Below the pieces are notes generated by a model, which worked only from the letters and a program-made list of their open reading frames with translations, was not told where the DNA came from and searched no databases. From Synergistaceae bacterium (lineage in GTDB: Bacteria > Synergistota > Synergistia > Synergistales > Synergistaceae), in the NCBI GenBank assembly GCA_045642025.1, contig JAZUIB010000003.1, forward strand, positions 1 to 27,599: 27,599 bases of DNA, read 5' to 3'. Positions 384 to 19,967 of this stretch are shown here, one piece after another. The stretch's first letter is position 1; each line of letters begins with the position of its first letter. The position numbers and the translations under genes are program-made.

Positions 384-433
384 ATCCTTATTATCTTATC
401 AAAACAGTATCCGGATGATATTCAGCAGTTTGC

Positions 434-2054: not shown

Positions 2055-2077
2055 AAATCCGCCTCTAACGGCGGATT
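2055..2077 (-). terminator. Hairpin AAATCCGCC-TCTAAC-GGCGGATT downstream of the DUF805 gene; candidate intrinsic terminator for the 4304->2097 unit
   Basis: Perfect 8-bp stem. On the minus strand it is followed by TTTTACAAAC, a short U-tract. Confidence 0.45.
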
Positions 2078-2096
2078 GTTATCAAGCAACGTATTA

Positions 2097-2705: not shown

Positions 2706-2746
2706 ATTCTCTCTCCTTTCTTTGCCTTCACTTGATCTGTTGTATT

Positions 2747-3055
2747 TTAATACATAGATGAGAATAGATTACTCATTGCGTGTCTAAATTGTATTAATTT
2801 AATAATCAGATATAGCAAGAATAGTGTATTAAACACAACACAGCCAAGAACTATATTCATTTTTTGTTCGAGAGTGACCTTGCTCCATTTTTCCTTCACG
2901 TCTTTCACCATATCATTTTGAAGGACCACATTCTGCTGCGCAGCCACAGGAGTTACCAGTGTCTGTCGTGATGCAGATGATGCAAGCAAACTACCGCATT
3001 TTCCACAGAATTTTACTCCATCTGCTGTTTTAAAACCACATTTAGGACATATCAT
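2747..3055 (-). CDS. Small zinc-ribbon membrane protein (N-terminal CPKCG-x11-FCGKCG, C-terminal TM helix)
   Basis: ATG at 3055 with RBS GGAGGA at 9 nt. It is 102 aa with a hydrophobic stretch IVLGCVVFNTLFLLYLIIKLI. Confidence 0.75.
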   Translation of the reverse strand: MICPKCGFKTADGVKFCGKCGSLLASSASRQTLVTPVAAQQNVVLQNDMVKDVKEKWSKVTLEQKMNIVLGCVVFNTLFLLYLIIKLIQFRHAMSNLFSSMY

Positions 3056-3095
3056 ATCTATTTTCCTCCGTTTTTATATGGATTTTATGCATTAA

Positions 3096-3698
3096 TTAAA
3101 GAAGAAGTGAAAAAACAAATATTCCACACCATACAGCAAAAGGAATATAATTTTTGGTCGTTTTGGATGCTCTCACATACAAATATACAGGCACCAAAAC
3201 TATCCCAAGCCAAAGCCAGTCATCTACTTTATACCCGTTATTTTTCAGTTCGCTGACATCCTGCGTGATAAAAATACAGTTTATTACACATAATATAATA
3301 CACTGGACATAAAAATTCATTTCAGGAACTGCAATTGCAATCAACAAATCCACCAAAAGAGGTATTGTTGCCAGCGCCCAAACCCATTTTTCTGTTATGC
3401 TTCCGGCAGAGATTATAGCTGCAGTATGGCCAAAACAAGCAGCAAGTTCAGTGTTTCCGGCAGGAGTCCAACTTGTCAGACCATTTTTCCAGACTAAAGT
3501 TTCTTTTACAATCGTACCGGCTGATATCATATTTACAATCTGATTTTGCGTAAATGGTCCTGTTTTATCTACACCGTTAAAATAGAACCATTCAGCCAAT
3601 ATACCGCTCTGATAATTATTTACATCTGTTTTTGTACCGCATTGGGGGCAAAAAGCTGTATTATCAGTCAATTGCATACCACAGTTTTTACAAAACAT
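3096..3698 (-). CDS. Zinc-ribbon + GYF-like (DUF4339) domain protein with four C-terminal TM helices
   Basis: The ORF-track start at 3704 is TTG. ATG at 3698 has RBS GAAGGAGG at 9 nt. The N-terminal ribbon is CKNCG-x11-FCPQCG. The segment WFYFNGVDKTGPFTQNQIVNMISAGTIVKETLVWKNGLTSWTP matches the DUF4339/GYF_2 pattern. Four hydrophobic helices follow. Confidence 0.8.
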   Translation of the reverse strand: MFCKNCGMQLTDNTAFCPQCGTKTDVNNYQSGILAEWFYFNGVDKTGPFTQNQIVNMISAGTIVKETLVWKNGLTSWTPAGNTELAACFGHTAAIISAGSITEKWVWALATIPLLVDLLIAIAVPEMNFYVQCIILCVINCIFITQDVSELKNNGYKVDDWLWLGIVLVPVYLYVRASKTTKNYIPFAVWCGIFVFSLLL

Positions 3699-3716
3699 TG
3701 ACAAAAACCTCCTTCG

Positions 3717-4304
3717 CTATTGGGCATTATACGGACAGTTCAGAAATTTGAGTATACTCTGTGCCTGCTTAGAATTCATATAGAACACAAATGTTCGCCC
3801 TTGCGATTGGTGACCTATATAACAAAGATGCGATTTATTATACTTAAATTTGGCATTTCCACCCCACAGAACACTTAAGTCCTGATACTCGGAAGATGCG
3901 TAATTCTTCTGGCTTTCAACAGCCCATTTAAGCTGATTTCTCATTGCAATAATTTCTTCCGTATAATATGAATTAGGCAATTCAATAAGAAGTGCGTTGC
4001 CTTCTACCTTAGTCATTTTTACAGTTGCAGGTTTCAGACTATTGTCATCAGCAGCAATAGAGCAATTTACATTGAGTATATTTCCGTTTACGGTTTGATT
4101 ATAACTGTTCCATATATAAAGAGCAGCAAGCAGAAATACTGACAATGTTAAAATAAATATTCTATTTCCAATGTCTTTAATCGCTTTTACCAACTCGATA
4201 TTCTGTTCAGCATGACCTGCAGGTTGAGGTGTAAGCGTCTCACCGCATATTCCGCAAAATTTTACTCCGTCTTCAGCTTCTGCACCGCATTTCCAACATT
4301 TCAT
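3717..4304 (-). CDS. Zinc-ribbon / single-TM / extracellular-domain protein (unknown about 130-aa ectodomain)
   Basis: ATG at 4304 with RBS AGGAGGAA at 8 nt. The N-terminal ribbon is CWKCG-x10-FCGICG. The TM helix is IFILTLSVFLLAALYIW. Confidence 0.8.
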   Translation of the reverse strand: MKCWKCGAEAEDGVKFCGICGETLTPQPAGHAEQNIELVKAIKDIGNRIFILTLSVFLLAALYIWNSYNQTVNGNILNVNCSIAADDNSLKPATVKMTKVEGNALLIELPNSYYTEEIIAMRNQLKWAVESQKNYASSEYQDLSVLWGGNAKFKYNKSHLCYIGHQSQGRTFVFYMNSKQAQSILKFLNCPYNAQ

Positions 4305-4373
4305 ACAAGTGTTCCTCCTATTTTCAATATACTTTTAGTACAAAATACGAATATATGTTATTGATATAACCTC

Positions 4374-4401
4374 ATTATACTACATTGTAATAATTTGTCT
4401 A
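4374..4401 (-). promoter_or_regulatory. Candidate sigma-A promoter (-35 TAGACA, 16-bp spacer, -10 TATAAT) about 70 nt upstream of gene 3717..4304
   Basis: Minus strand reads TAGACAaattattacaatgtagTATAAT. It lies downstream of terminator 4703..4727. Confidence 0.45.
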
Positions 4402-4702
4402 ATATTCCTAAGACTTACTAATAAACAATATCATCCTTCCTCTTCTTTATACCGTACGTATTTTATTGCCCTGTCATTGCACATATCATACACAACGCCT
4501 AATATTTCCATATCCCGTATAATCTCTATGTTCGTATTCAGCTAAAACTTTGCGTGTTGATTTTATTACTCTTGCAGTACATCTTATTGTTACTTGGCTA
4601 TAAATATATATCATTTTTCTTTGTTGCAAATATAACGTTTCTCTAAATTCAGACGGATAACAAAACAGATTGCTATATACGTTGTGACAAGGATACATAA
4701 AG

Positions 4703-4727
4703 GTCCGAAAGCGCAAAACTTTCGGGC
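4703..4727 (-). terminator. Hairpin GTCCGAAAG-CGCAAAA-CTTTCGGGC; candidate terminator after small gene 4754..4987
   Basis: 9-bp stem with one G-U pair. On the minus strand the trailing sequence CTTTATGTAT is T-rich. It overlaps the spurious ORF 4486..4764. Confidence 0.5.
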
Positions 4728-4753
4728 TTCTAAATCTCACAAAAGCACATATC

Positions 4754-4987
4754 TTACTGAACATACTGACTGCCGACTAGATGTCCTTTTTCATTGTACA
4801 TATAGGCATAATTACTGCGTTTTACAGTAACAGTAGAGTCTGTATATCCCTGAAGTTCGCCATACTGCGAGAACATCAGCTGATTCTTTTCGTTGTAAAC
4901 ACAGGCATAATTACCGCGCTGTACAGCCATGCCGATAGAAAGCATAAGCGCAAGGACAGATACATACTTCATCAAATGTCTGTTCAT
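4754..4987 (-). CDS. Small secreted protein (77 aa) with signal peptide and two copies of an NYAxxYNEKxxLxxSQY repeat
   Basis: ATG at 4987 with RBS AGGGGA at about 8 nt. The signal peptide is MKYVSVLALMLSIGMAVQ. The internal repeat is GNYACVYNEKNQLMFSQYG / SNYAYMYNEKGHLVGSQYV. Confidence 0.6.
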   Translation of the reverse strand: MNRHLMKYVSVLALMLSIGMAVQRGNYACVYNEKNQLMFSQYGELQGYTDSTVTVKRSNYAYMYNEKGHLVGSQYVQ

Positions 4988-5105
4988 ATCTTCGTCCCCT
5001 TAAATTTGGATTTAGATTATTGCAGTATATTTTGCTCATAAATTATTGTACCGTTTGTACAATAATTTAATTTTAAACAGCAATTATTTAAATCTGGGAC
5101 AATAG

Positions 5106-5681
5106 TTAAAGTTTGCTGCCACAGTATACACAACAGTTTGTACCTGGGGCAACAGGTGCGCCGCAGTTCGGACATTCTGTCAGTTGTGGTACGGTATTTG
5201 AGCTCTCAAATACAACAGGCTTTTCAATTACAGGCTGAACAGGCTCTTTGGGCTGTTTATCCTCTCCGGCATGTTCTTTGGGATTTGGTCCGTATTTATT
5301 TGTCCCGGGCTGGCTGTCTTTTAAGGGAAGAATGAGAATATAAATAAAAATTGCAACTCCTACAAGTATCATAAGCACACCCAAAGCACCTGCACCATCA
5401 CAGCAAAGTACGCCAATACAGCACAACACTATAGCAAGCAAATAGAGTCCCAGATAGGAACGACCGGATTTTCCAACATCATGCAGTCTACGGACAAAAA
5501 CTGCAACTCCGGGCACAAATGCAGCTATCATCCATAGAGTCCATAACACAGGAATGGTGCCGAGAAGGACAGACATCAACAAATTCAGCAGCATAAAATA
5601 CCAATATTCACTGCGCCTTGCACGACCGCTAAAAGTAGCATATTTTGAAAATACGCTTTTTACCGCTTCACCAAAACTCAT
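5106..5681 (-). CDS. DUF805-family membrane protein with C-terminal zinc ribbon (CPNCG...CCVYCG); paralog of 2097..2705
   Basis: The ORF-track start at 5699 is TTG. ATG at 5681 has RBS AGGGGA at 8 nt and gives MSFGEAVKSVFSKYATFSGRARRSEYWYF, aligning with the paralog's N-terminus. Confidence 0.85.
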   Translation of the reverse strand: MSFGEAVKSVFSKYATFSGRARRSEYWYFMLLNLLMSVLLGTIPVLWTLWMIAAFVPGVAVFVRRLHDVGKSGRSYLGLYLLAIVLCCIGVLCCDGAGALGVLMILVGVAIFIYILILPLKDSQPGTNKYGPNPKEHAGEDKQPKEPVQPVIEKPVVFESSNTVPQLTECPNCGAPVAPGTNCCVYCGSKL

Positions 5682-5707
5682 ATTTATTCCCCTTTTCAAA
5701 AGAATAT

Positions 5708-6667
5708 TTATTCAGATACTGCCGAATTTTTAACCCATGCGTATCCGTATCGCGGGTGCTTTATAAATGTCCATTCTCCGCGAAGTTCTGACACGTGTAT
5801 GTTAATCAAAGCTGTCTGTGCACCTTCAGGCGATGCAACGTCAGGTGATAGTTCATACACTGGAGAACGTTCATCTGAATCAGGATATTCGCATATTTTT
5901 ACAGAATCTCCCGCCATTGCCCTGTCAAAGATCAATGCGCTGTCATTTGGCATAACATATAAATCGGCATAATCTGCAGTAATATATGCATCAGCTACAG
6001 GAGTAAACGGGTTTATGCCTTTATTGCAGGAAATCATTCCATAAGGTCTGTCAGAATACATTTTGTTTATATAGAAATTATCAACATAACGTATCCCGTT
6101 TGCGCTGATAATCCTGTGTTTTTCATACACATTTGCAGTAAGAGTACCGTTTTTCGCGGTTTCTCTGATACCAAAATACCCTGTTAGGAATTCTTCGCTT
6201 ATACCTCTGCCGTAAAGTCGTAAAACAAGTTTGCACTGCGCGTCATAATATGCCGATGAGACTGATCTGTCTAATATTGAGGTATCACCTGCGTTAATCG
6301 CTCTGACTCCTCTGTTGACATCTGCGCTGTAATATGTTGCAATTTCTGCATGCGAAACATTTTTCTGTGTTTCTTTCTTTGGGGTTTCTGCATGAGTAGC
6401 GACAGTTGTGTTATCAGTACTTCCGGTTACAGATTTATCAAACAGCATATAACACGCCATCATAAGTATAATTCCGCAGAGCACAACAATAATAAGCATT
6501 GTCCTATTATTATGATGTTTCTCTATTACAGCAGGCTGTGTGTATCCGGCTGGTATTTCAGATGTTTTTTTTGCATCAGGTACCTTCATACAAGCAGATG
6601 CGCCACATGAAGGGCAATAACTTAATCTATCATCAAATTCAGAACCGCAATATTCACACTTATTCAT
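5708..6667 (-). CDS. Zinc-ribbon / TM / large extracellular-domain protein (about 319 aa; C-terminal end resembles an SH3b-like fold)
   Basis: The ORF-track start at 6703 is TTG. ATG at 6667 has RBS AAGGAG at 7 nt and gives MNKCEYCGSEFDDRLSYCPSCGA. The TM helix is MLIIVVLCGIILMMACYMLF. The C-terminus ...GEWTFIKHPRYGYAWVKNSAV resembles the SH3b ends seen elsewhere in the cluster. Confidence 0.8.
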   Translation of the reverse strand: MNKCEYCGSEFDDRLSYCPSCGASACMKVPDAKKTSEIPAGYTQPAVIEKHHNNRTMLIIVVLCGIILMMACYMLFDKSVTGSTDNTTVATHAETPKKETQKNVSHAEIATYYSADVNRGVRAINAGDTSILDRSVSSAYYDAQCKLVLRLYGRGISEEFLTGYFGIRETAKNGTLTANVYEKHRIISANGIRYVDNFYINKMYSDRPYGMISCNKGINPFTPVADAYITADYADLYVMPNDSALIFDRAMAGDSVKICEYPDSDERSPVYELSPDVASPEGAQTALINIHVSELRGEWTFIKHPRYGYAWVKNSAVSE

Positions 6668-6755
6668 CGTTTTCTCCTTATAATTCTGCAGTCCCGTGTA
6701 CAAAACTGAAAATTATATGCTACTCAAGTCTATCTTAGCACAAATATACTTCAAA

Positions 6756-7487
6756 TCAGAAAAATTTCATTTCAGTAATGCAGGTGTCCTGCCATCGGCT
6801 GCCGTCACGAACATCATTAATGACAATTTTTACAGTATCAGTAACAAGAGGGTGATCAAATGTTATTCTCTGCTCCCCCATACTATCCTGTATAGTGCAG
6901 TTTACGGTAGTTCCGTCTGCAGCTATAACACTTAGCGATACAGGAACTCCGTTTTTATAAAACAAATCAGATCTTTTCTGATGCCCTGCCCATATACTGA
7001 AGCCGTGTATTCTCTGCATACCGTTAAACTGGACACTAATATATTCCCCAATACCCATGCCTGCGACACCTTCCGCCCAACACGACTTAAAATTATTGTC
7101 AAAAATTTTTGAAGCATCATGAGAATATGAGTTTTCAATGTCGTATGACGACGCAGAAACAGACACAATGTTTACATTATTTGCGTCCGCAATATTATTC
7201 TGCTCATTTTCTGCAAATGACCTGGCAGTCGCAGTCTGCGAAGTATTCTGCGAAACAGAAGTGTCTTCACCGCTTTTATTGTCTTTACTGACAGATATAA
7301 CAGTAATTGCAGCAAAGACAATAACTGCAACAGACAGTATCGCTATCAACATATTTTTGTTTATTTTTACTGCATTGCTGGTTTGTTCTGTCTCTTTTTC
7401 ACTTTCTGTGGCTGTTGCGGCACCACAATTGGGACAATAACTCAGCATATCATCAAATTTGCTGCCACAGTAATGACATCGTTTCAT
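6756..7487 (-). CDS. Zinc-ribbon / TM / discoidin-like (F5/8 type C) domain protein
   Basis: ATG at 7487. The N-terminus is MKRCHYCGSKFDDMLSYCPNCGA. The TM helix is MLIAILSVAVIVFAAITVI. The C-terminal segment (about 130 aa: ...ASSYDIENSYSHDASKIFDNNFKSCWAEGVAGMGIGEYISVQF...TEMKFF) fits the discoidin pattern. Confidence 0.8.
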   Translation of the reverse strand: MKRCHYCGSKFDDMLSYCPNCGAATATESEKETEQTSNAVKINKNMLIAILSVAVIVFAAITVISVSKDNKSGEDTSVSQNTSQTATARSFAENEQNNIADANNVNIVSVSASSYDIENSYSHDASKIFDNNFKSCWAEGVAGMGIGEYISVQFNGMQRIHGFSIWAGHQKRSDLFYKNGVPVSLSVIAADGTTVNCTIQDSMGEQRITFDHPLVTDTVKIVINDVRDGSRWQDTCITEMKFF

Positions 7488-7525
7488 ATTTTGGGACCTC
7501 GCTTTATATTCTGATTATAAATGTA

Positions 7526-8380
7526 CTAATAACGCTTAATGCGCTGCAAAGCCTTAACAGCATTTTCTTCTCCCGCTTCCGCGGCTTTCTGATACCAATA
7601 TATAGCTCGGTTTATATCCTGTAAAACACCTTTCCCCGAATGATACATCGTACCGAGATTATACATAGCCGTAGTATTACCATTTTCCGCTGCCAAAGCA
7701 AACCATTTAACAGCCTCATCATTATTCACAGATGTTCCCCAGCCGTATTTATACATTGCTCCAAGGCGATTCATGGCATCTTTTTCCCCTTTTTCGGCAG
7801 CTTTACTGTACCATTCAAATGCCTTATAGTCATCTTTGTTAACACCTATGCCGTATTTATACATTACACCCAGACGTTTCATTGCCGTCGCATGGCCTTT
7901 TTCAGCTGCAGATTCAAAATAAAGCTTGGCTTCAGCATAATTTTTTGCATTATACAGATTGTTGCCTTTGCTGTAATCAGCATTTGAATCAATATCAGGT
8001 GCATTTTTTACCGAAACATTCTTATGCGGGGCTTCTGTATTAGAGTCAATATTACTTCTGACTACAGGAGTATTTTGTTCTTTCAACGTATTATTAGCAT
8101 TTACATTCTCCTGTACCACAGTATGAGATGCATTGGAGACAACTGCAGTACTAGATTGTGTATTCTGCTGAACAGATATCTTCGTACCACTTTGACTGCC
8201 TTTACTGACGTTTAACAAAACAAAAGTACCCAAAGCTACAACTGCACCGATCAGTATCGATATCAGCAGCAAATTTTTATCTAATTTTTCCGTATGACTT
8301 TCAAAAACTGTAGCACCACAGTTGGGACAATAATGCAGTGAACTGTCAAAATTGCTGCCACAGTATTGGCACTGTTTCAT
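7526..8380 (-). CDS. Zinc-ribbon / TM / Sel1-repeat (TPR-like) protein
   Basis: ATG at 8380 with RBS GGGAGA at 9 nt. The N-terminus is MKQCQYCGSNFDSSLHYCPNCGA. The TM helix is LLLISILIGAVVALGTFVLL. The C-terminus has at least 4 Sel1-type repeats (AMKRLGVMYKYGIGVNKDDYKAFEWYSKAAEKG...). Confidence 0.85.
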   Translation of the reverse strand: MKQCQYCGSNFDSSLHYCPNCGATVFESHTEKLDKNLLLISILIGAVVALGTFVLLNVSKGSQSGTKISVQQNTQSSTAVVSNASHTVVQENVNANNTLKEQNTPVVRSNIDSNTEAPHKNVSVKNAPDIDSNADYSKGNNLYNAKNYAEAKLYFESAAEKGHATAMKRLGVMYKYGIGVNKDDYKAFEWYSKAAEKGEKDAMNRLGAMYKYGWGTSVNNDEAVKWFALAAENGNTTAMYNLGTMYHSGKGVLQDINRAIYWYQKAAEAGEENAVKALQRIKRY

Positions 8381-8419
8381 GGCTTCAATCTCCCATACAT
8401 CATATATTGTCGAATATAT

Positions 8420-8448
8420 GCAGACAAGCGAAATAATCGCTTGTCTGC
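8420..8448. other. Perfect palindromic hairpin GCAGACAAGCG-AAATAAT-CGCTTGTCTGC between genes 8461..8961 and 7526..8380; possible terminator/attenuator or operator
   Basis: 11-bp perfect stem with a 7-nt loop. Flanking sequence is A/T-rich but has no clean U-tract. Confidence 0.4.
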
Positions 8449-8460
8449 GTGATGAGATTT

Positions 8461-8961
8461 CTATCTGATATACTGATGGCTGACCCAGCCTTTTCTGTCT
8501 TTGTATTCAACCTGATACCAAAATTCATTTATATTACCGTCAAGAGCATCAAAAAATTGGCATCCTGTGACCAAAACTTCTTCATTTCCGGGGAAACAAT
8601 ACAGCACTGGGGAGTTTTTACTGGCTTTTTGCCTCATATTAACCCTTGTTCCCTTAATATGACGCTTCGGAATCTGTACAAACTGACCATAAATCCAGCC
8701 ATTTTCCTCTCCGGTGCCTTCTTCAATATTTATATCAATCTTGTACCAGGGATATTTTTCACCAGGGTTATGGTGTTTTCCGCATAAAATAAAACTATTG
8801 CCTTTATTCATTTGATACAACACAGAGGCACCTTTGTTGGGATTTTTCCTTACATTGACATTGTTGCCTGTAACTATTGGACCCAGAAAAGATTCAGCCA
8901 ACGCAGTCCCCGCAATGAATACCGACAAAACCACAAGCAGCATAATAATTTTCTTCTTCAT
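8461..8961 (-). CDS. Secreted protein with two tandem bacterial SH3 (SH3b-like) domains
   Basis: The ORF-track start at 8967 is TTG. ATG at 8961 has RBS GGAGG at 8 nt. The signal peptide is MKKKIIMLLVVLSVFIAGTALA. There are two copies of the motif NVNVRKNP...GWIYGQFV / TRVNMRQKAS...KGWVSHQYI. Confidence 0.8.
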   Translation of the reverse strand: MKKKIIMLLVVLSVFIAGTALAESFLGPIVTGNNVNVRKNPNKGASVLYQMNKGNSFILCGKHHNPGEKYPWYKIDINIEEGTGEENGWIYGQFVQIPKRHIKGTRVNMRQKASKNSPVLYCFPGNEEVLVTGCQFFDALDGNINEFWYQVEYKDRKGWVSHQYIR

Positions 8962-8994
8962 AATCAAACCTCCAAAATTAATTTGAAATTATAT

Positions 8995-9459
8995 TTACTG
9001 CACATATTGTGCTGATACCCAGCCGTATTTGCCTTTGTAATAAATATACACCCAAGTACCGTCATAATATGTCGCATTGCCAAGCACCCAAACGTCCTCA
9101 TACCGAGGGAAACAATATAAAACCCCTGCTTTTTTGCTTGGTCCCTGTCTCATATTTACTCTTGAACCTGATATATAACTTTTATAAATATTTACATACT
9201 GTCCGTATATCCAGCCTGCGTTTACATCATATTCTGAGGAAACAAATCTGTACCATGGATATTCTTCACCCGGATTTTTATGCACTTCAATAATTTTACC
9301 GTAGTTTCCGCTATTAAGCTGATACATAACTCCAGCGTTTATATTCGGCGCACGTCTTACATTAACATGTGTGCCATTAACGGTAGGCAGAGTATAAGCA
9401 AAAGCGGTGCCGGTTAAAAGAACTGCCATAATTGCAAGTACTATAATAACTTTTTTCAT
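8995..9459 (-). CDS. Secreted protein with two tandem SH3b-like domains (paralog of 8461..8961)
   Basis: ATG at 9459 with RBS GAGGT at 9 nt. The signal peptide is MKKVIIVLAIMAVLLTGTAFA. The repeats are HVNVRRAPN...GWIYGQYV / SRVNMRQGPS...GWVSAQYVQ. Confidence 0.8.
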   Translation of the reverse strand: MKKVIIVLAIMAVLLTGTAFAYTLPTVNGTHVNVRRAPNINAGVMYQLNSGNYGKIIEVHKNPGEEYPWYRFVSSEYDVNAGWIYGQYVNIYKSYISGSRVNMRQGPSKKAGVLYCFPRYEDVWVLGNATYYDGTWVYIYYKGKYGWVSAQYVQ

Positions 9460-9520
9460 TTTTCATTACCTCACAAACATAAATGTAACTTACAAATTTT
9501 TATACAAATTCATTCTGCCA

Positions 9521-9994
9521 TTACCAATCAGCGATTGCACTAAACACAATCCTGTCAACACTGCCATCCAGCACCTGTTGTTTAACCGGTTTTGTGCAAC
9601 AGACAATTACATGCCCCTGTTTATCGCAGATAGCAGCATAATCAACCACCATCTGTCTGCCGTTAAGTGCAAATTTTGCTTTCACATACATATAAAAAGG
9701 TGTCTGATTTAACCTGTATTTATTCCTTACTGAATTTTTTATACTCTGTGTGCGGTATGCAATCAGTTGGTCTGCATAGTAATAATTGCCATTTCCGGAC
9801 GTTGGAGCATAGTAATATGCCTTATCTGCTGTAAGTTTTGCCCTTTGCCAGTTTGACCTAAGGTTGACAAACAAAGGACTTCCGCAAGGCTTGAAGTGCT
9901 GTGTTCCGGGAACAAAATATACTGCCGAAACTTCAGGCACAAAGACCACTGTAAGCAATATAAACGTAAATAAAAATAGCAGTTTCTTTTTCAT
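9521..9994 (-). CDS. Secreted hypothetical protein (Tyr/Cys-containing, about 157 aa); start uncertain (9994 vs 10018/10027)
   Basis: The open frame runs 9521..10027. ATG at 9994 gives a classic signal peptide MKKKLLFLFTFILLTVVFVPEVSA. The RBS is weak. Confidence 0.65.
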   Translation of the reverse strand: MKKKLLFLFTFILLTVVFVPEVSAVYFVPGTQHFKPCGSPLFVNLRSNWQRAKLTADKAYYYAPTSGNGNYYYADQLIAYRTQSIKNSVRNKYRLNQTPFYMYVKAKFALNGRQMVVDYAAICDKQGHVIVCCTKPVKQQVLDGSVDRIVFSAIADW

Positions 9995-10128
9995 ATACAC
10001 TTTCACGTCATTATTCATAATAAACATATGTTATATATAAAAATACCTCACTCTGCGCAGTAATATTTCGTAATATCAGAGCATATTTTACCAGCGACAG
10101 AATGAAGTATTAAATTACATAATAACAA

Positions 10129-10995
10129 TTATCTGAGATTTATATCAATATTTTTTTGCTTTCCATCCGGATCCATAAACACAACTGTTATACCCATATG
10201 ATCCTTTGCACATTGTCTGATATGGTCTCTGAGCTCCTGAGCCGAGCAGTTTTTCGTATTTATATTATTAACCATGTAAAGTTCTGTGCCCGCCATAGCC
10301 CCTAAATTTGCCATTGCGCTTCCTGGCCTGACACTTTCGATTATAAGATACCCTTCCCTGCTTTTAGCTTTGTCGGATACATCAAAACCTGCAGATTCAA
10401 GCATACTGAACTGCGTATCATTGGAAAGCAGCACACTTTCACTAGACATATGTATTTCTCTGCGCACTTTTTCTGCCAAATCCATATCCGGTACACGTGC
10501 AGTTACAGTTATATATCTTCCAGTTGAATCCAGTTCAAAATCGACTTCTTCTCCACCATCCATGCGTGCTGTAAGCACATCATTATTATTGATTTCTGCA
10601 GACACATTATTATCCATAAACATTCTTCTGGTGGCTTCCATTGCACGTTGCGCACCGACCTGCGATGCCGCAGCAACAAAATCTTCTGCATATCCTGTAG
10701 CATGGTCAATCAGCGTTTTCTGCACTTTTATTCTCTCTTCATTATTCTGGCTGTTATTATCGGCGGCGCCAAGCAATGCACCCAATACAGCTAATCCTGC
10801 CACAATACCTGCGGCAGTACCTATTGATGAGTCATCTGAACTGCTGTGATGGTGATGGTGGTGATGCTGCGGGCGTGGATGCGGACGTGAATGTTGCCGC
10901 TGTGGCTGCGGGCGCGGATGATGCCCGCGCGGACTGGCAAATACAGGTGTAGCGGCAAGTAGAATTATCATGAGTACAGCTATAACTTTTTTCAT
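10129..10995 (-). CDS. Signal-peptide protein with His/Pro-rich tract (PRPQPQRQHSRPHPRPQHHHHHHHSS), hydrophobic Gly/Ala segment and C-terminal PDZ-like domain
   Basis: ATG at 10995 with a strong RBS AAAGGAGAGG. The signal peptide is MKKVIAVLMIILLAATPVFA. A run of 7 His follows. The C-terminal 75 aa (GYLIIESVRPGSAMANLGAMAGTELYMVNNINT...ITVVFMDPDGKQKNIDINL) fit the PDZ fold pattern. Confidence 0.8.
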   Translation of the reverse strand: MKKVIAVLMIILLAATPVFASPRGHHPRPQPQRQHSRPHPRPQHHHHHHHSSSDDSSIGTAAGIVAGLAVLGALLGAADNNSQNNEERIKVQKTLIDHATGYAEDFVAAASQVGAQRAMEATRRMFMDNNVSAEINNNDVLTARMDGGEEVDFELDSTGRYITVTARVPDMDLAEKVRREIHMSSESVLLSNDTQFSMLESAGFDVSDKAKSREGYLIIESVRPGSAMANLGAMAGTELYMVNNINTKNCSAQELRDHIRQCAKDHMGITVVFMDPDGKQKNIDINLR

Positions 10996-11039
10996 TGCGA
11001 CCTCTCCTTTATTTACGAATTAAACCGTTTTTAATAGTT

Positions 11040-11609
11040 TTAATATTCGTTCTGTATCCTGCGAAGATTTTCTTCTCTGCGTTTTTTGGCTGCTTCTCTT
11101 GCGGCATTGTGTTCCGAGTTACTCGCCGAACTTTTAACAACTGAATTTGTATTAGGTTTTGAGGAGGTAACTTTATTTTTGTTCACGCGCGGAACAACTA
11201 CCGATTTAGTCGTTTTTCTTGATTTATCAATCCTTTTTATTTTCTTTTGAGCAACGGATACCCGCGGTTGTTTTTTGTCAGTTTTAACTATCACGGCATT
11301 ATGAACAACCTTTTGTTCCTCTGTTACAGTATGCCGAACAGTATCAGGCACTGCAGATTTATCCGGTTCGTTATCTGTTACACATAAAAAATACATAAGA
11401 CAACATACTGCTATAACAGCAAGCAGTATAAATATTTTTTTCCCGTTCTTGACGGACTTATCAGACTTCTCGCTCTGCTCCTGTATAACTCGTTGCGTGT
11501 ATGCCTGTTTAGCAGCCTCTTCTGAATATGTAGCACCGCAATAGGGACAATAACTCAAACCACTGTCAAAAAATTCCCCGCAGTACGGACATTTTTTTGT
11601 ACCTGCCAT
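11040..11609 (-). CDS. Zinc-ribbon / TM protein with Lys-rich basic C-terminal tail
   Basis: ATG at 11609. The N-terminus is MAGTKKCPYCGEFFDSGLSYCPYCGA. The TM helix is IFILLAVIAVCCLMYFLCV. About 110 aa of K/R/S/V-rich low-complexity sequence follow. Confidence 0.75.
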   Translation of the reverse strand: MAGTKKCPYCGEFFDSGLSYCPYCGATYSEEAAKQAYTQRVIQEQSEKSDKSVKNGKKIFILLAVIAVCCLMYFLCVTDNEPDKSAVPDTVRHTVTEEQKVVHNAVIVKTDKKQPRVSVAQKKIKRIDKSRKTTKSVVVPRVNKNKVTSSKPNTNSVVKSSASNSEHNAAREAAKKRREENLRRIQNEY

Positions 11610-11740
11610 TATAGTTATCTCTGCTCCTTATCTACATTATCCATTCGATTTGTATCACATCTTTTATTAATTCTGCTTACTTGTTTCAGATCTATTTTGG
11701 ACATCTTGACCTTTTGTATTTTTTTCATCTTCTTTATTTT

Positions 11741-12622
11741 TCAGAAATTCGCTAATTTTGTCTGTGTTGCTTTTAATGCTAGTAACTGATGCACACCTCT
11801 ATCTTGACTGCCTTTTTTCTTTTTATCTTCAGTACGTTCTTTGTTGCTTTCTCGCGGACCACTATCCTGAGTGGTGCTTTTTGCAGGCGGCGTAATTTTG
11901 CCATTTCTGACTATAACTATCTTCATCCCGCTTTTAATATATTTCTTTAACTCATGAACATCTGTATTTTTAAGCCTTATGCATCCTTCAGTCGCATCCT
12001 TGCCGATTGATTTAGGGTCATGAGTTCCGTGAATTCCTATTCCGTTCCAGCCTGTATGAAGTCTGATAAACCATGGACCATAGGCATTTTTTATAACACC
12101 TTTACCGTCATGGAAATCATGTGACCATGTGCTAGCATCCTGTACTGACTGCACATAAAAATCGTCACCTTCGGGTGTACGAAAGTCCCCAGACTTGGTT
12201 TTATTTCCGTGATTTTTTCCTGTTGCAACTCCATACGTTTCTATCGGCTTTGGATTTTTGCCGTCCATAACATATAGCTTATGTGTCCCTTTATCAATCA
12301 ATATCCATTTTCCCTTTTCAGGGCGACGGTAACCGCTGGTTTGCACCGTCTGTGATGAAGACCCGTTTTGTTTTTCGGGGTTCTTTGGTTCTTTAGAAAC
12401 ATTTTTTTGTGCAGCAGAACTATTGCTTGCATTACCAGTTGATTTTGAAGGCGTCTCCATTTTTTTCTCACTTGATGTAGTTTTTTCACGTTTTTCTACA
12501 TCAAAACAAAAAGCTACTCTGTCAAGCGCAAGACCTGCAAAAACCCCTGCGACAAATACCAATGATAGTATTATTAGCGTTTTTTTGCGTTTCTTTGTGC
12601 GAGCGATTTCATTAGTATACAT
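11741..12622 (-). CDS. L,D-transpeptidase (YkuD-family catalytic domain) with N-terminal TM anchor, Ser/Lys-rich linker and K/E-rich C-terminal tail
   Basis: ATG at 12622 with RBS AAGGAGA. The TM helix is LIILSLVFVAGVFAGLAL. The catalytic signature is ...GIGIHGTHDPKSIGKDATEGCIRLKNTDVHEL (His...Cys motif of YkuD). Confidence 0.85.
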   Translation of the reverse strand: MYTNEIARTKKRKKTLIILSLVFVAGVFAGLALDRVAFCFDVEKREKTTSSEKKMETPSKSTGNASNSSAAQKNVSKEPKNPEKQNGSSSQTVQTSGYRRPEKGKWILIDKGTHKLYVMDGKNPKPIETYGVATGKNHGNKTKSGDFRTPEGDDFYVQSVQDASTWSHDFHDGKGVIKNAYGPWFIRLHTGWNGIGIHGTHDPKSIGKDATEGCIRLKNTDVHELKKYIKSGMKIVIVRNGKITPPAKSTTQDSGPRESNKERTEDKKKKGSQDRGVHQLLALKATQTKLANF

Positions 12623-12637
12623 ATTGTCTCCGTCTCC

Positions 12638-13204
12638 TTATTTTACAAACTGACCGTATACCCAACCTTCATATCCTTTATAAGAAATTTTGCACCAAGG
12701 ATATTTTCCGTCATACACTGGAGATACCTCAGAAACATAGACTTCTTCATAACCAGGGAACTGGAATATTACACCTGCGGACAAACTCGGATACTGCCTC
12801 ATATTAACATGTGTACCGTTAATTAAACACCAGCCGGTATGATTATATGATTGTTTTTTTTCTGGAGGCGCTTCAGTTTCAGCCGAAGCTGAACTCGAAT
12901 AATTGTTAGAAGAAGATGTATTACTTACAGCACTATTGTCTATCGTCACATTGCTATCCGTTATCTTTACACCTATGCTGAAAGCAAGTATTACAAGCAT
13001 AATTATTGCAGCCGCTATTCCTATTATTTTTGATGTGTTATCACGTTGCTGAGCACTTGGCTGCGTATATGGCGTCTGTTGAGTTTGTCGCGGTTGCTGC
13101 ATGATTGGAGTCTGTGCTGACACCTTCGGCAATACTGCGCCACAGTGTGGACAATAGTTCAGTTTATCATCTACAACGGAATCACAATACAAACACTTTT
13201 TCAT
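12638..13204 (-). CDS. Zinc-ribbon / TM / Ser-rich linker / C-terminal SH3b-like domain protein
   Basis: ATG at 13204 with RBS AAGGGA at 9 nt. The N-terminus is MKKCLYCDSVVDDKLNYCPHCGA. The TM helix is IIGIAAAIIMLVILAFSIGV. The C-terminus THVNMRQYPS...GYEGWVYGQFVK resembles the SH3b domains of 8461/8995. Confidence 0.8.
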   Translation of the reverse strand: MKKCLYCDSVVDDKLNYCPHCGAVLPKVSAQTPIMQQPRQTQQTPYTQPSAQQRDNTSKIIGIAAAIIMLVILAFSIGVKITDSNVTIDNSAVSNTSSSNNYSSSASAETEAPPEKKQSYNHTGWCLINGTHVNMRQYPSLSAGVIFQFPGYEEVYVSEVSPVYDGKYPWCKISYKGYEGWVYGQFVK

Positions 13205-13232
13205 TCAAATATCCCTTTATGGTTAGCAGTAA

Positions 13233-13925
13233 TTAGAAACTGCCTCTGCTGTTTATAGCGCGTCCATGTTTGCGTTTGGCGAATAGATCTTTCAATTCTG
13301 TAAGAACAGATTTTATTTTCTCTTCTTCCTCAGCAGAACTAAATAATGTTTCAAGTTCTTTCAGACTGGAGTCGATATCTTTATCTATATCACCAAAGAC
13401 TGTTTTATCCGAGTAATGCGCATCTTCACAAAGTTGTTCAAGCTCTGACCTGTAATCGCTGCATTTGCTGTCAGATTTCAGCTGCATTAGTCTAGATTCT
13501 ATATCCTGCATAAACGCAAATTTTACTGCTAATGCATCATCAGAGGTCTTTATTTTTGAAGCCGCGAGATAGAAAAGAAGGAATAATACACATAAAGCAA
13601 CAATTCCTACCGCCTGATGCATACTGTACCGTGTGACTTCGTCATAGTATGAATCACGCATAAATACCATTATAAGCGTAAATAGAAAATATAGCACAGA
13701 AACTGTACTGAAAGCACTTATATTAAAAGCTCTTGCATAGTCCAGTACAATTACAACCAACGCGCTGAACAGTACCAATTCAGCAATAATCACAAACAAA
13801 AGGGAAATAACATCTATTCTGTTAGCCTGAATTCCCCAGTCGCTACAGAAAAAAATCGCCAGTGTTGTCAGTAATATTAACAATTCTATAACAATTAAAG
13901 AAGTTATTTTGGAACGTTCTGTCAT
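13233..13925 (-). CDS. Four-TM membrane protein with acidic coiled-coil C-terminal domain (possible YdjH-like partner of the SPFH protein)
   Basis: ATG at 13925 with RBS GGAGGGG. Four hydrophobic helices sit in the first 125 aa. About 100 aa of E/D/K/L-rich helical sequence follow. It is 15 nt downstream of the SPFH gene. Confidence 0.75.
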   Translation of the reverse strand: MTERSKITSLIVIELLILLTTLAIFFCSDWGIQANRIDVISLLFVIIAELVLFSALVVIVLDYARAFNISAFSTVSVLYFLFTLIMVFMRDSYYDEVTRYSMHQAVGIVALCVLFLLFYLAASKIKTSDDALAVKFAFMQDIESRLMQLKSDSKCSDYRSELEQLCEDAHYSDKTVFGDIDKDIDSSLKELETLFSSAEEEEKIKSVLTELKDLFAKRKHGRAINSRGSF

Positions 13926-13940
13926 ATTGAACCCCTCCGC

Positions 13941-15245
13941 TTAAAGCAATTTTGTCCCGCATTCAGGGCAAAATTTTGTACTCTGTTCTATTTCCTTACC
14001 GCAGTTAGCGCATTTTTTGATTAGTGCAGCTCCGCATTCAGGGCAAAATTTAGCTTCTGGGGTAATTGCAGCTCCGCATTTAGGACACGGTTGAGGGAGT
14101 GTTTTGCCGCAGGCAGCACATACTTTTGCGTTATCATCTAAATCAGCGCCGCAGAACGGACACGGATTATAGTGGTCACCGCACTGAGGGCAGAATTTAG
14201 CAGTCTTCGGATATTCTGTACCACATTTATTACAAGTAATCATATCTGCAGATTTTTTGTTTTCTCTTGTGCTTGTATCTTCTGTATCTTCACCGCAGTG
14301 TCCGCAGAATCTAATACTGACAGGCATATCGCGGCCGCATTTAGGGCAGCGCTTCATTGGGGCTGTATTGATATTCTGCGCCAATGTACCCATCTGGTTG
14401 CCCATAGGAGCACCTATTCCAACTCCCATTCCCAAACCTATGCTAGCCCCCATTAGACCAGCCTGCCCAGAGCTCGGATTTGTGGCAGCACCTTCCAGTG
14501 TATCAAATGACCGCTCTTGAACATAGCTGTATCCAATAATATCCATCTCTGCACGCTTTGATAAAGCATCGCGGAGTTTAACAACTGCAGGGTCACTTTC
14601 TGGAACGTTAATATCGTTAACATAGAAGTTAATCAATCCAATGCCATAGTCGCTGAATATCTTTCCCATACGCTCTTTAAGAAATTCTGAAAGTTCATCA
14701 AGATATGCATTGATTTCAAGAATACTTACCTGTTTTTTAACCAAATACTGTGATATTGCATCTTTTGCTTTTGTTAAATAAAGACCTTTGAAATACAACT
14801 GTATGTCTGCTTTATTAAATCCATGAAGCGTACCTACAAGTTTCATAAGAAATTTTCTTGAGTCTTCTATTTTAATACCAAACTGTCCAAAAGCACGCAC
14901 AGATATAAGCAGCTTATATTTAGGATCCTGTAACTGTATCGGCGAACTGGTTCCCCATTTTATATCAAGAGAATGTATTTTGTTTACATACCATACTTCA
15001 GCAGTGAACGGTGATTTACCGCCAAACGGAATATTAACAATTTTGTTTAAAATCGGGATATTGGCAGTATCAAGAGTATGTCTGCCTGGCCCCATCAAGT
15101 CACAGGCCTGACCGCCTTTAAACAGTATTGCTTCCTGTGATTCATTAACTATCACCTGCGTCCATGTTCCTAACTCCTGACAAGGGAACTTCCACGCAAA
15201 TGTTTCCGGCCCGCCGTCATATTTGACAACATTAATTATAGCCAC
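13941..15245 (-). CDS. SPFH/band-7 (COG4260, YdjI-like) domain protein fused to five C-terminal double zinc-ribbon repeats
   Basis: The ORF-track start (GTG at 15254) abuts the RBS. GTG at 15245 lies 8 nt after AAAGGAG and gives MAIINVVKYDGGPETFAWKFP..., matching the YdjI-family N-terminus. A Gly/Met-rich linker follows. Then come 5 CxxCG-x8-11-FCxxCG units (residues about 300-437). Confidence 0.85.
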   Translation of the reverse strand: MAIINVVKYDGGPETFAWKFPCQELGTWTQVIVNESQEAILFKGGQACDLMGPGRHTLDTANIPILNKIVNIPFGGKSPFTAEVWYVNKIHSLDIKWGTSSPIQLQDPKYKLLISVRAFGQFGIKIEDSRKFLMKLVGTLHGFNKADIQLYFKGLYLTKAKDAISQYLVKKQVSILEINAYLDELSEFLKERMGKIFSDYGIGLINFYVNDINVPESDPAVVKLRDALSKRAEMDIIGYSYVQERSFDTLEGAATNPSSGQAGLMGASIGLGMGVGIGAPMGNQMGTLAQNINTAPMKRCPKCGRDMPVSIRFCGHCGEDTEDTSTRENKKSADMITCNKCGTEYPKTAKFCPQCGDHYNPCPFCGADLDDNAKVCAACGKTLPQPCPKCGAAITPEAKFCPECGAALIKKCANCGKEIEQSTKFCPECGTKLL

Positions 15246-15366
15246 TGTCAACACTCCTTTTTATAATGATGTTACTAATATAATATATTTTTTTGATAAT
15301 TTAATGTACTTGCAGTCCAATCATACTATAGCAAAACATTCGTACATGGAAAGTACTTCGCCAATT

Positions 15367-15396
15367 ATTATAATTTAGTATATTTTATGTTGTCAA
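15367..15396 (-). promoter_or_regulatory. Consensus sigma-A-type promoter (-35 TTGACA, 18-bp spacer, -10 TATAAT) about 115 nt upstream of the SPFH gene; likely drives the accessory cluster
   Basis: Minus strand reads TTGACAacataaaatatactaaatTATAAT. It sits in an AT-rich ORF-free spacer. Confidence 0.5.
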
Positions 15397-16091
15397 TTAC
15401 ATTTTTACACAATATGTGTATTTACCAGCATTTAAAATTTAAAATTTATAATTTATTTTTTTACAAATGCATTGCCGCTTATCTGCGACTATTCATCTAC
15501 ATAGCTTCTAGGACTTATGAATATTGCATATTTTTTCGTCAATTATATCGATTCCCTCTCTGTTATAGTAAACAGATCCCTGCAGAAGACATTTTTTCTT
15601 CAGTATATTTTGCAAAACAAATGTTTCATGTTCAATGGCAAATGTAACGTGCCTGTACAGCAACAAATATTTATTTTATACAGTCTTCGTCAAGGTTATA
15701 ATATTTTACAGTTGCTTTGAATATTCTCTCATTATTTTTCAGTTTGACACGTCTGCTGTAATTAAGATTGAGTTTCTGTTCACCAATATATACTGCAATG
15801 TATGTTTATTCAGTATTGATTGTTACATTTTCTGAAAATTTACTACTGAAATGTACAGTTGTTTTCATATTGCTTTTGAATTTTCCGTTGACCGAAAGTG
15901 CTTTTTCTGTCAGAACCTTTGAACAATGTATCTCGTTCTGGTTTTCGTAGTCCGTTAGCGGTCCTTCGGAAAGTCTGTATTCTTCTCACGTCTTAACTAA
16001 TTTTACTGGTTCGTTTTTGTGTTTCTCTCATCTTATTTGGGTCTTACAACGAGAAGACTTTTAATAGAACAATAATGCTATATAAAATTTA

Positions 16092-16119
16092 AGACAGCCT
16101 TCCGAAAGGAAGGCTGTCT
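16092..16119 (-). terminator. Perfect palindromic hairpin AGACAGCCTTCC-GAAA-GGAAGGCTGTCT immediately downstream of ntpD; intrinsic terminator of the V-ATPase operon
   Basis: 12-bp stem with a GAAA tetraloop. On the minus strand the trailing sequence TAAATTTTATA is T-rich. It lies 8 nt after the ntpD stop. Confidence 0.75.
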
Positions 16120-16126
16120 TTGTCTG

Positions 16127-16753
16127 TTAGTGGTTTCTGACGATGTCTTTGATTACCATGAGTCGGCTGAGTGTAGAGCGTTCTTGTTCTTCGAGTTTCA
16201 TCGAGATGGAATGCACCGCTTCGGTGAACTGTGGTATCATAACATGCTCTAGCGCGTTGACGCGACGTCTCGTGCGTTCGATTTCAAGAGACATCGATTT
16301 CAGTGCCTTTTCGTCTGCGGCAAGTCTGACAAGTTGCGGCATGATGGTAATAAATTGTTCAAGCGCAACATCAAAACTGCCGGGGGATATTCCAAGTCCG
16401 TAGCTGAGTTCTGTTGACTGCGGCGGAATTTCAAATACAGGCACTTTAACACTCATTATGTTTTTGTAGGTCGCATTTACCTGAAGGTTACCACCGGAAC
16501 ACATAAGGGTCTGGTCAAGGATTTCGGGAAGTGTCTGCGCGCTGGCGAGAAGGAAACCTTTGTAACAACTGCCTATCTCGTTTTCTATTTCTTTGCGCAG
16601 TTTCCAAACTGCTTTCGCGCGTTCAAGGAATTCTTTTACGAGCGCATCCTGTTTGTCTTTGAGTAGTTTGTGTCCGCGTTTAGCAACCACGAGCTTTCTC
16701 TTGATACGGGAAAGCTCCATGCGATTGGGGTTAACGTTCAGTGCCTTTACCAT
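16127..16753 (-). CDS. ntpD: V-type ATP synthase subunit D
   Basis: 208 aa. ATG with RBS AGGTGA. It is the last gene of the ntp operon. The coiled-coil-rich sequence MVKALNVNPNRMELSRIKRKL... is typical of the central-stalk D subunit. Confidence 0.9.
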   Translation of the reverse strand: MVKALNVNPNRMELSRIKRKLVVAKRGHKLLKDKQDALVKEFLERAKAVWKLRKEIENEIGSCYKGFLLASAQTLPEILDQTLMCSGGNLQVNATYKNIMSVKVPVFEIPPQSTELSYGLGISPGSFDVALEQFITIMPQLVRLAADEKALKSMSLEIERTRRRVNALEHVMIPQFTEAVHSISMKLEEQERSTLSRLMVIKDIVRNH

Positions 16754-16763
16754 TGAAGGTCAC

Positions 16764-19944: not shown

Positions 19945-19967
19945 ATATTTCGCCTTCCCTTTCTCTG

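Follow-up and report, generated by a model that had tools for sequence, protein, structure and literature searches.

Five genes on the minus strand of a contig from a Synergistaceae bacterium (JAZUIB010000003.1 of assembly GCA_045642025.1; the 27,599 nucleotides (nt) analysed are referred to below as the window) encode proteins that open with a common Cys4 ribbon, continue into one membrane helix and end in different modules. We find that this five-gene family is real, with a similarity far beyond chance, and that it consists of evolutionarily domain-shuffled, lineage-specific paralogues whose architecture is already known and common; the locus does not constitute a switching system. Judging by gene context, the ribbon would most likely serve for docking to an SPFH protein encoded by the first gene of the same array.

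Five genes share an N-terminal Cys4 ribbon

The genes are located at 5708-6667 (member 1), 6756-7487 (member 2), 7526-8380 (member 3), 11040-11609 (member 4) and 12638-13204 (member 5). Each is read from the minus strand, starts with ATG and is preceded by a purine-rich tract that resembles a ribosome-binding site (RBS). The N-termini of the products are MNKCEYCGSEFDDRLSYCPSCGA, MKRCHYCGSKFDDMLSYCPNCGA, MKQCQYCGSNFDSSLHYCPNCGA, MAGTKKCPYCGEFFDSGLSYCPYCGA and MKKCLYCDSVVDDKLNYCPHCGA, and their shared start can be written as the 23-residue pattern M-(K/N)-x-C-x-Y-C-(G/D)-(S/E)-x-(F/V)-D-x-x-L-x-Y-C-P-x-C-G-A. When the first 95-100 residues were aligned with MAFFT, 12 columns of the ribbon were invariant, and the invariant residues other than cysteine are Y6, D12, L15, Y17, P19, G22 and A23. 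The C-x2-C-x10-C-x2-C arrangement with rubredoxin-type CxxCG and CPxCG knuckles is present in all five proteins, the ribbon of member 5 being a CLYCDS variant.

The original prediction held that the five genes open with a near-identical ribbon; its coordinates were all correct, and the resemblance exceeds that of generic Cys4 ribbons. Over the 18 non-Cys ribbon positions the identity within the family averages 0.58 (range 0.50-0.67), compared with 0.19 (maximum 0.26) between the family and ten other C-x2-C-x10-C-x2-C ribbons of the window and with a median of 0.24 among 583 ribbons of the same spacing taken from the best database matches. All-against-all BLASTP likewise places the five proteins in a cluster of their own at 40-75 bits, with scores of at most 38 bits against other ribbon proteins of the window. 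The similarity is also visible in DNA, as had been predicted. A gene-blind repeat search returned the five 5′ ends as the top and largest direct-repeat family of the window (68 nt, 65-79% identity), with copies at 6600-6667, 7420-7487, 8313-8380, 11533-11600 and 13137-13204. The strings TTGGGACAATAA and TTGCTGCCACAGTA, originally quoted as examples, both occur in 7420-7487 and in 8313-8380.

One anchor is followed by five different C-terminal modules

Every family protein has one strongly hydrophobic helix, located within residues 37-78 (Kyte-Doolittle 2.8-3.1) and separated from the ribbon by a polar spacer of 13-35 residues that is variable and of low complexity. The Ser/Thr/Asn-rich linker after the helix can still be aligned between paralogues by MAFFT, and homology ends beyond it. 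Members 2 and 3, for example, are 43% identical over their first 106 residues and unrelated afterwards (BLASTP). We infer an N-in/C-out topology and metal binding for the five proteins; since Synergistota have an outer membrane, we refer to their outer parts as periplasmic domains and not as ectodomains.

The modules beyond the linker are unlike each other. In member 2 the helix (residues 46-64) is followed by a NADase-type discoidin glycan-binding domain at residues 109-242 (Pfam PF25302, 8.6e-26; NCBIfam NF047619, 1.3e-34), in member 3 (helix 37-55) by three Sel1 repeats (Pfam Sel1, 3.1e-37), and in member 5 (helix 60-78) by a single SH3b domain (Pfam SH3_3, 1.5e-10). Member 4 (helix 59-77) ends in a K/R-rich tail with no recognisable domain. 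Hydropathy and domain searches thus confirm the predicted combination of one transmembrane helix with discoidin, Sel1, SH3b or basic-tail modules. The label 'SH3-like' that had been proposed for member 1 is not supported: its product gave no SH3 match, and BLAST did not connect it with the SH3b proteins encoded nearby.

In member 1 a ribbon at residues 4-22 and a helix at residues 58-76 precede an orphan periplasmic region of 240 residues in which no Pfam or NCBIfam domain was recognised. The sole homologue of this protein among 5.8 billion proteins is a strain variant with 99% identity, and its outer part had no match in a PDB sequence search; a faint match (E=0.04) was obtained to TcaA_5th, an NTF2-like domain. 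A single-sequence AlphaFold2 model, with an overall predicted local distance difference test score (pLDDT) of 40.6, is too poor to serve for a fold search. It places a helix at residues 47-81, where pLDDT reaches 83, and short strands at residues 2-3, 10-12 and 17 of the ribbon, where it is about 70.

Between strains, members 1 and 4 together differ by 9 non-synonymous and 2 synonymous changes, and the V-type ATPase genes of the same window by 4 and 8, respectively; these are tiny numbers that come from different samples. The sequence differences hint at relaxed or diversifying selection on members 1 and 4, for which we make no claim.

The modules were shuffled in evolution within a lineage-specific family

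For three of the modules the closer relatives are attached to other anchors. Those of the discoidin module of member 2 (36-50% identity for the best homologues) have signal-peptide or lipoprotein N-termini. The Sel1 module of member 3 is 47% identical to a ribbon-less protein with a helix and an OB-fold from the nearest species (L001:359-1291), and the SH3b module of member 5 is 51% identical to a secreted SH3b protein encoded nearby, at 8995-9459 (BLASTP). Conversely, one database protein, P0009, shares 55% identity with member 4 over the first 64 residues and then continues into an unrelated C-terminus. It follows that the history of the anchor is not that of the modules, and domain shuffling in the course of evolution is supported. 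As originally proposed, the genes form a domain-shuffled paralogous family on a constant anchor, in which homology spans the ribbon, helix and linker and the modules are not homologous.

An earlier word-indexed search with the 95-column anchor alignment gave proteins of at most 175 residues only and missed the five proteins themselves; it was replaced by an exhaustive HMMER profile search with the anchor alignment over 1.84 billion cluster representatives. Matches above 100 bits in a single stretch came only from the five proteins (or their 95-99% identical strain variants) and from P0009. With one further member in a collection of this size, the subfamily is lineage-specific. The same search returned 5,405 proteins at E<=0.001, the remainder scoring lower per ribbon, and sampled single-ribbon matches carry YARHG, DUF5067, Ltp, NPCBM or TPR modules. 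The architecture of zinc ribbon, helix and variable domain, typified by TcaA, is common and already known, and the family grades into it. Exact-sequence look-ups of members 2 and 3 and of P0009 found nothing on record. One of the database proteins, P0101 (1,317 residues), matched the anchor profile in 19 separate stretches, corresponding to about 19 tandem zinc ribbons.

The present-day genes do not exchange cassettes

The original prediction also saw a pattern that looks like cassette exchange and suggested that the shared 5′ identity could drive recombination between paralogues. Taken as an active mechanism, this would mean that recombination at the shared 5′ sequence carries modules from one anchor to another or produces variants within populations. 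Several observations could be taken in its favour: the five 5′ ends are a detectable family of direct repeats, with the identities given above; the island that holds them is missing from the syntenic site of the nearest species; and the neighbouring gene 11741-12622 shows what looks like a sharply localised allelic replacement between strains. However, in the 69 nt that encode the ribbon any two of the genes are 57-78% identical and share no exact run longer than 14 nt, which falls short of what RecA-dependent exchange normally requires. Identical residues are encoded by the same codon in 74 of 145 cases, compared with 66 expected from codon usage, and codon sharing is elevated only in the adjacent pair of members 2 and 3 (12 of 16 versus 7.4 expected). 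With codon sharing near chance, the DNA similarity is what protein conservation produces, and the shared 5′ identity is too short and too interrupted to drive recombination as had been suggested. All five 5′ copies are in direct orientation, so that exchange between them would delete the intervening genes and would not swap modules. Neither the scanned genes of the island nor the remainder of the window yielded a recombinase or reverse transcriptase, and no inverted repeat flanks the exchange boundaries, the best inverted repeat of the window (32 nt, 75%) being located elsewhere.

Comparison with related strains points in the same direction. Four contigs are collinear with window positions 4667-7126, 10671-11812, 12010-23204 and 12576-13745, at overall identities of 97.9-99.6%, and no swapped or rearranged module was seen in any of them; positions 7126-10671 lie outside their coverage. 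As far as these fragments reach, gene content at the syntenic loci is fixed. We conclude that the present-day five genes are stable. The exchange reading failed every test that could be run and is largely refuted, and we regard it as highly improbable.

The replacement in the neighbouring gene deserves a separate description. Strain contig L083 is 99.8% identical to the window over 12500-23204, and 72 of its 92 differences fall in the 490 nt at 12010-12499, where the contig ends. This segment encodes residues 40-130 of the L,D-transpeptidase gene 11741-12622 and thereby covers the low-complexity linker after the helix together with the first part of the YkuD domain. The two strains hardly differ at residues 1-39 and 131-205 and are about 45% identical at residues 40-130, a pattern that looks like localised allelic replacement.

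A ribbon-bearing SPFH gene recurs beside ribbon-anchored proteins

The co-directional array in which the family lies is headed by a minus-strand gene at 13941-15254. Its product is an SPFH protein (Band_7_1, Pfam PF13421, 1.3e-44) that contains a low-complexity stretch rich in Gly/Ala/Met and ends in five zinc ribbons (DZR and Zn_Ribbon_1 matches), and it has no hydrophobic segment or membrane helix. The conserved second gene of this SPFH module, at 13233-13925 on the minus strand, encodes a membrane protein with four hydrophobic segments and a coiled-coil-like C-terminal region, referred to below as the four-helix protein. Member 5 is the third gene of the array and starts 28 nt past the stop codon of the four-helix gene.

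We collected 69 metagenomic loci with SPFH relatives at 35-73% identity, 36 of which have at least 1.5 kilobases (kb) downstream. In 30 of these 36, a four-helix protein and, within 3 kb, one to three co-directional ribbon-bearing membrane proteins are encoded in this order behind the SPFH-ribbon gene, the latter in the place that member 5 has in the window; in L085, L091, L095, L106 and L118 the gene next to the SPFH gene on its downstream side is a homologue of the window's four-helix gene. Open reading frames (ORFs) that combine a ribbon with a helix occur at 8.0 per 100 kb in the SPFH loci and at 0.2 per 100 kb in 80 V-ATPase control loci, a 40-fold difference. The majority of the partners have two helices and a C-terminal ribbon of the form CxxCGA-x12-CE[YF]CG, which resembles the ribbons of the DUF805 proteins of the island, and a few have an N-terminal ribbon.

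The neighbourhood was also approached from the side of the anchored proteins, starting from the contigs of those database proteins that have the most family-like ribbons. Of four informative reverse look-ups, three (P0212, P0160 and P0184, which belong to one family) have a Band_7_1 + ribbon gene at a distance of one or two genes, in each case accompanied by a four-helix gene of about 130 codons; two further contigs were too short to judge. In L154 the SPFH protein is 34% identical to the 13941-15254 product over its full length, the only case aligned end to end, and in both L154 and L158 the ribbon-anchored gene stands alongside a tandem paralogue with a different C-terminal end. In the literature searched we found no description of the SPFH/four-helix/ribbon-protein neighbourhood beyond ydjGHI/samGHI of B. 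subtilis.

The neighbourhood was seen at window positions 13233-15254 and among the loci L085-L150, L154, L155, L157 and L158. Some of the distant loci have further neighbours: at L154 2375-3898 the module adjoins MobA/MobL relaxase fragments, and at L155 3755-6394 and L157 3304-5925 it stands beside a large DUF87/nSTAND3-type ATPase. This hints at a mobility or conflict-system context for the distant version of the module in L154, L155 and L157.

Possible role of the ribbon

The neighbourhood enrichment, the reverse look-ups and the precedents of GltJ and SamGHI (see below) lead us to read the ribbon as a docking tag and the SPFH/four-helix pair as its likely partner. According to this model, the five products would be single-pass inner-membrane proteins with a cytoplasmic N-terminus and a periplasmic C-terminus. 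All five go back to one duplicated anchor cassette made of the 23-residue Cys4 ribbon, a short variable cytoplasmic spacer, the membrane helix and the Ser/Thr/Asn-rich periplasmic linker. Old duplications of the anchor were joined to periplasmic modules unrelated to each other (Sel1 repeats, SH3b, a glycan binder of discoidin type, an orphan domain and a basic tail), of which the discoidin, Sel1 and SH3b modules appear in this or related genomes behind ordinary signal peptides or other anchors as well. The ribbon itself would be neither a DNA-binding nor a catalytic unit; it would most likely act as a cytoplasmic protein-docking tag for the soluble, YdjI/SamI-like five-ribbon SPFH scaffold together with the four-helix membrane protein. 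In this way a single scaffold beneath the membrane would be connected, through the paralogues, with several different periplasmic modules that bind peptidoglycan or glycans. We consider this account as a whole, a lineage-specific anchor family with shuffled modules whose ribbon docks to the SPFH/four-helix pair, the best explanation of the data and rate its probability slightly above even.

A number of observations weigh against it. The evidence that links the SPFH protein to the anchor is all of one kind, gene neighbourhood, and many of the 36 loci stem from termite-gut-like samples that resemble each other, so that they do not count as independent. The loci nearest to that of the window (52-69% identity) have mostly two-helix partners with a C-terminal ribbon that are not homologous to the five proteins. 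Of the five members, it is member 5 alone that immediately follows the SPFH pair in the window, the rest being located 2-8 kb further down, and P0179, the fourth informative look-up, has no SPFH gene within 3.4 kb. A one-to-one pairing of the SPFH ribbons with partner proteins was rejected, as their counts do not track each other (rho 0.36, p=0.09, 23 loci). Pfam scans found neither pspA nor a TPM-domain gene in the island, which makes it a non-canonical ydj/sam operon. The counts of K and R residues (2-5 before the helix versus 1-2 after it) give a weak positive-inside bias. Finally, none of the five ribbons reaches a Pfam gathering threshold (17-25.5 bits for cutoffs of 25-28.5, E from 4e-3 to 9e-6; Zn_ribbon_3 PF13248 and Zn_Ribbon_1 PF13240). 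Automatic annotation would therefore miss them and label the proteins hypothetical.

Two other functions of the ribbon have to be weighed. It may be a topology plug, a fast-folding metal-bound knot at the N-terminus that fixes the N-in/C-out orientation of the signal-anchor helix and needs no specific partner, the SPFH neighbour being coincidental. Folded N-terminal domains, zinc fingers included, are known to block N-terminal translocation of signal-anchor proteins, and with so weak a positive-inside bias an additional determinant of orientation would be useful. A generic device would also fit an architecture that is extremely widespread with unrelated outer domains such as YARHG, DUF5067, Ltp, NPCBM and TPR, as well as the lack of a nearby SPFH gene in the case of P0179. 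But such a plug would not need 58% conservation at non-Cys positions, which persisted while spacers and modules diverged beyond recognition, and it leaves unexplained both the 40-fold enrichment of ribbon-bearing membrane proteins near SPFH-ribbon genes and the reverse look-ups. We think the plug not very likely. The alternative that the proteins are one-component transmembrane sensors or anti-sigma-like regulators, whose periplasmic modules each sense a different envelope ligand and whose ribbon sequesters or releases a cytoplasmic regulator, possibly via regulated intramembrane proteolysis, appears quite unlikely. The layout, a small cytoplasmic metal-binding domain, a helix and a periplasmic ligand-binding domain, is that of many membrane-bound regulators, and the SamGH pair of B. 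subtilis has been proposed to signal envelope stress under restraint by the SPFH protein (bioRxiv 10.64898/2026.02.06.704340). Yet Pfam scans of the island revealed no gene for a sigma factor, transcription factor, kinase or site-2 protease, the C-x2-C-x10-C-x2-C ribbon is not the H-x3-C-x2-C motif of zinc anti-sigma factors, a 23-residue ribbon with a low-complexity spacer of 13-35 residues offers little surface for a regulator, and member 4 would have nothing but a basic tail as its sensor.

A broader form of the docking idea can be formulated, in which the ribbon would be an address tag of general use: by means of it, and with the help of the small four-helix protein, single-pass envelope proteins would dock to a soluble SPFH (Band_7_1) scaffold that bears ribbons itself. 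We put it forward tentatively and consider it unlikely. If true, one five-ribbon scaffold would gather at least five periplasmic peptidoglycan- or glycan-binding modules into one membrane microdomain, and part of the thousands of orphan proteins with a ribbon, a helix and a variable domain would be explained, including the tandem sets beside SPFH-ribbon genes on unrelated gut contigs.

The family lies in a variable low-G+C island

The first 16.1 kb of the window have 35-42% G+C, and the adjoining V-ATPase operon has 45-50%. The A subunit of the V-type ATPase (18151-19944) is 97% identical in protein sequence to that of a Synergistaceae metagenome-assembled genome (L001), the operon being 82% identical in DNA, and 72-83% identical to those of other Synergistaceae and Synergistales. 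The stretch 1-16100 is missing beside the V-ATPase operon in L001, L002, L003 and L004, and in L002 the cell-division cluster follows directly. A low-G+C stretch that is absent from this position in the four nearest Synergistaceae genomes is best described as a variable island. On the opposite side of the operon, L001 encodes ribbon-less homologues of the Sel1 module and of the C-terminal domain of the 10129-10995 product.

The island is dense in ribbons, with 15 of them in 11 proteins within 15 kb. Besides the five family genes, its envelope genes comprise three ribbon-first membrane proteins, two DUF805 proteins with C-terminal ribbons, two secreted double-SH3b proteins, a membrane-anchored L,D-transpeptidase, an adhesin-E-like protein and a protein with a sub-threshold PDZ match (E=0.024). 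A second ribbon subfamily of the CxKCG type, which had also been predicted, is real. Its ribbon + helix proteins 2747-3055 and 3717-4304 (both minus strand) are 35% identical over 60 residues, and in the repeat search their genes shared 94 nt at 70% DNA identity, RBS region included; the looser relative at 3096-3698 (minus strand) is a zinc ribbon followed by a GYF_2 domain (2.8e-14) and membrane helices. A DUF805 membrane protein at 5106-5699 (minus strand; Pfam DUF805 and Zn_ribbon_3) bears the C-terminal ribbon CPNCGA-x9-CVYCG and is 41% identical to its paralogue 2097-2705. Each of the two closes a run of three ribbon-first genes.

Two co-directional runs at 2097-4304 and 5106-8380 are in fact parallel, each composed of three ribbon-first genes, a DUF805-ribbon gene and a small secreted protein (1422-1925 or 4754-4987), and the DUF805 genes have 83-87% DNA identity in patches. 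The sequence suggests that the two runs may have come from an old segmental duplication. The 77-residue secreted protein encoded at 4754-4987 consists of two copies of a unit of about 33 residues (YACVYNEKNQL... and YAYMYNEKGHL...), which correspond to a DNA repeat at 4788-4827 and 4887-4926 (83% identity), and is conserved in strain contig L081. The two double-SH3b proteins, at 8461-8967 and 8995-9459 on the minus strand (Pfam SH3_3), are 40-51% identical to residues 128-188 of member 5 by BLASTP. The secreted protein 10129-10995 has an N-terminal stretch rich in His/Pro/Arg/Gln, in which seven His stand in a row; it also contains a second hydrophobic segment and, as mentioned, a weakly PDZ-like C-terminal region (E=0.024), and short degenerate DNA repeats were seen at 10853-10935.

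A sigma-70-like promoter match (12/12, consensus match only) is located at 15396-15367 on the minus strand, upstream of the SPFH gene. From there on, no strong terminator-like site was found on the minus strand until 4725-4705, and genes are tightly packed on the same strand from 15254 to 4754, with intergenic gaps of 8-131 nt. Between the island and the V-ATPase D gene lies an AT-rich stretch of 870 nt (15255-16126, about 33% G+C) without a convincing gene, and a bidirectional terminator with a 13-bp stem is found at 16091-16120. A prophage or integrative element was considered and rejected, as there are no integrase or phage genes and the tRNAs are 10 kb off, beyond the V-ATPase operon; an Rfam scan of the window detected three tRNAs only. 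A PADLOC scan gave no sign of a known defence system, its matches being weak and confined to low-complexity and helix regions.

Significance

Ribbon-anchored single-pass proteins are very common in bacterial genomes, as the 5,405 significant matches to one profile among cluster representatives illustrate. Very few have been studied, and the characterised examples that we found are TcaA, GltJ and YdjG/SamG only. The present locus is a clean natural experiment, with one anchor, five periplasmic modules and a candidate cytoplasmic partner that heads the same array, and the link to a YdjI/SamI-type SPFH module provides a testable hypothesis for the function of the ribbon. If the docking idea is true, the many 'zinc ribbon domain-containing hypothetical proteins' would, as a large class, gain a function, and it would extend the concept of SamGHI/flotillin-type scaffolds to diderm bacteria. 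If it is false, the locus would be a tidy paralogue expansion with domain accretion in a variable low-G+C island of envelope genes.

Comparison with known systems

In its architecture the family resembles TcaA of S. aureus, which has a predicted intracellular zinc finger, one membrane span and an outer bulk that affects the cell wall (PMC10328498). The same order of N-terminal zinc finger, single span and larger extracytoplasmic part would hold for the five proteins if their topology is as we propose, and member 1 adds the faint NTF2-like hint of TcaA_5th. Three members and P0009 match the TcaA model NF053815 of NCBIfam weakly and locally (E about 2e-4, about 20 bits), with residues 1-70 aligned to residues 1-70 of the model. 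The 550-bit equivalog cutoff of this model is far from being reached, however, and there is no full-length match. The outer domains are unrelated, the five proteins are half the size of TcaA or less, and TcaA comes from a monoderm Firmicute, whereas the host of the five proteins is a diderm Synergistaceae bacterium.

The closest parallel for the array is the SamGHI system of B. subtilis, in which the soluble YdjI/SamI is recruited to the membrane by the ribbon-bearing YdjG/SamG together with YdjH/SamH (bioRxiv 10.64898/2026.02.06.704340; PMC11237479). Similarly, the SPFH protein of the window combines Band_7_1 with a low-complexity stretch and C-terminal ribbons and has no membrane anchor, and the array holds the same three kinds of genes, with the ribbon-bearing member 5 two genes downstream of the SPFH gene. 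The window differs in the lack of pspA and in having a four-helix protein in place of a TPM-domain protein. Its partners carry one ribbon and varied periplasmic modules, while SamG has two ribbons and an NTF2-like domain. Further differences are the five ribbons on the SPFH protein of the window and the expansion of the partner into five paralogues.

GltJ of Myxococcus xanthus has an N-terminal cytosolic ribbon that was shown experimentally to act via protein-protein contacts (PMC11135422). Its cytosolic layout is reproduced by 3096-3698, in which the ribbon stands directly before GYF_2 and membrane helices follow, but none of the five family members has a GYF domain and the island has no gliding-motility genes. 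With regard to regulators and switches, the H-x3-C-x2-C motif of zinc anti-sigma (ZAS) factors is absent from the five proteins and no sigma factor gene is present in the window. Unlike shufflons, invertible cassettes, gene-conversion loci and diversity-generating retroelements, the five-gene array has no recombinase or reverse transcriptase, no long near-identical repeats and, over the stretches covered by strain contigs, no modules swapped between strains.

Outside the family, the most similar ribbons found (0.44-0.51 identity over non-Cys positions) are those of P0160, P0184, P0212 and others, uncharacterised proteins encoded on contigs of gut Firmicutes type, which combine a ribbon of the form MKECKYCG..YDD.L..CPNCGG with a helix, TPR and an NPCBM-like domain. 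They differ from the family in a long TPR-like helical stalk, in a last knuckle that reads CGG and not CGA, and in the absence of Tyr17. They share with it the order of ribbon, helix and variable C-terminus of glycan-binding type, the presence of tandem paralogues, and the adjacent Band_7_1 + ribbon and small four-helix genes.

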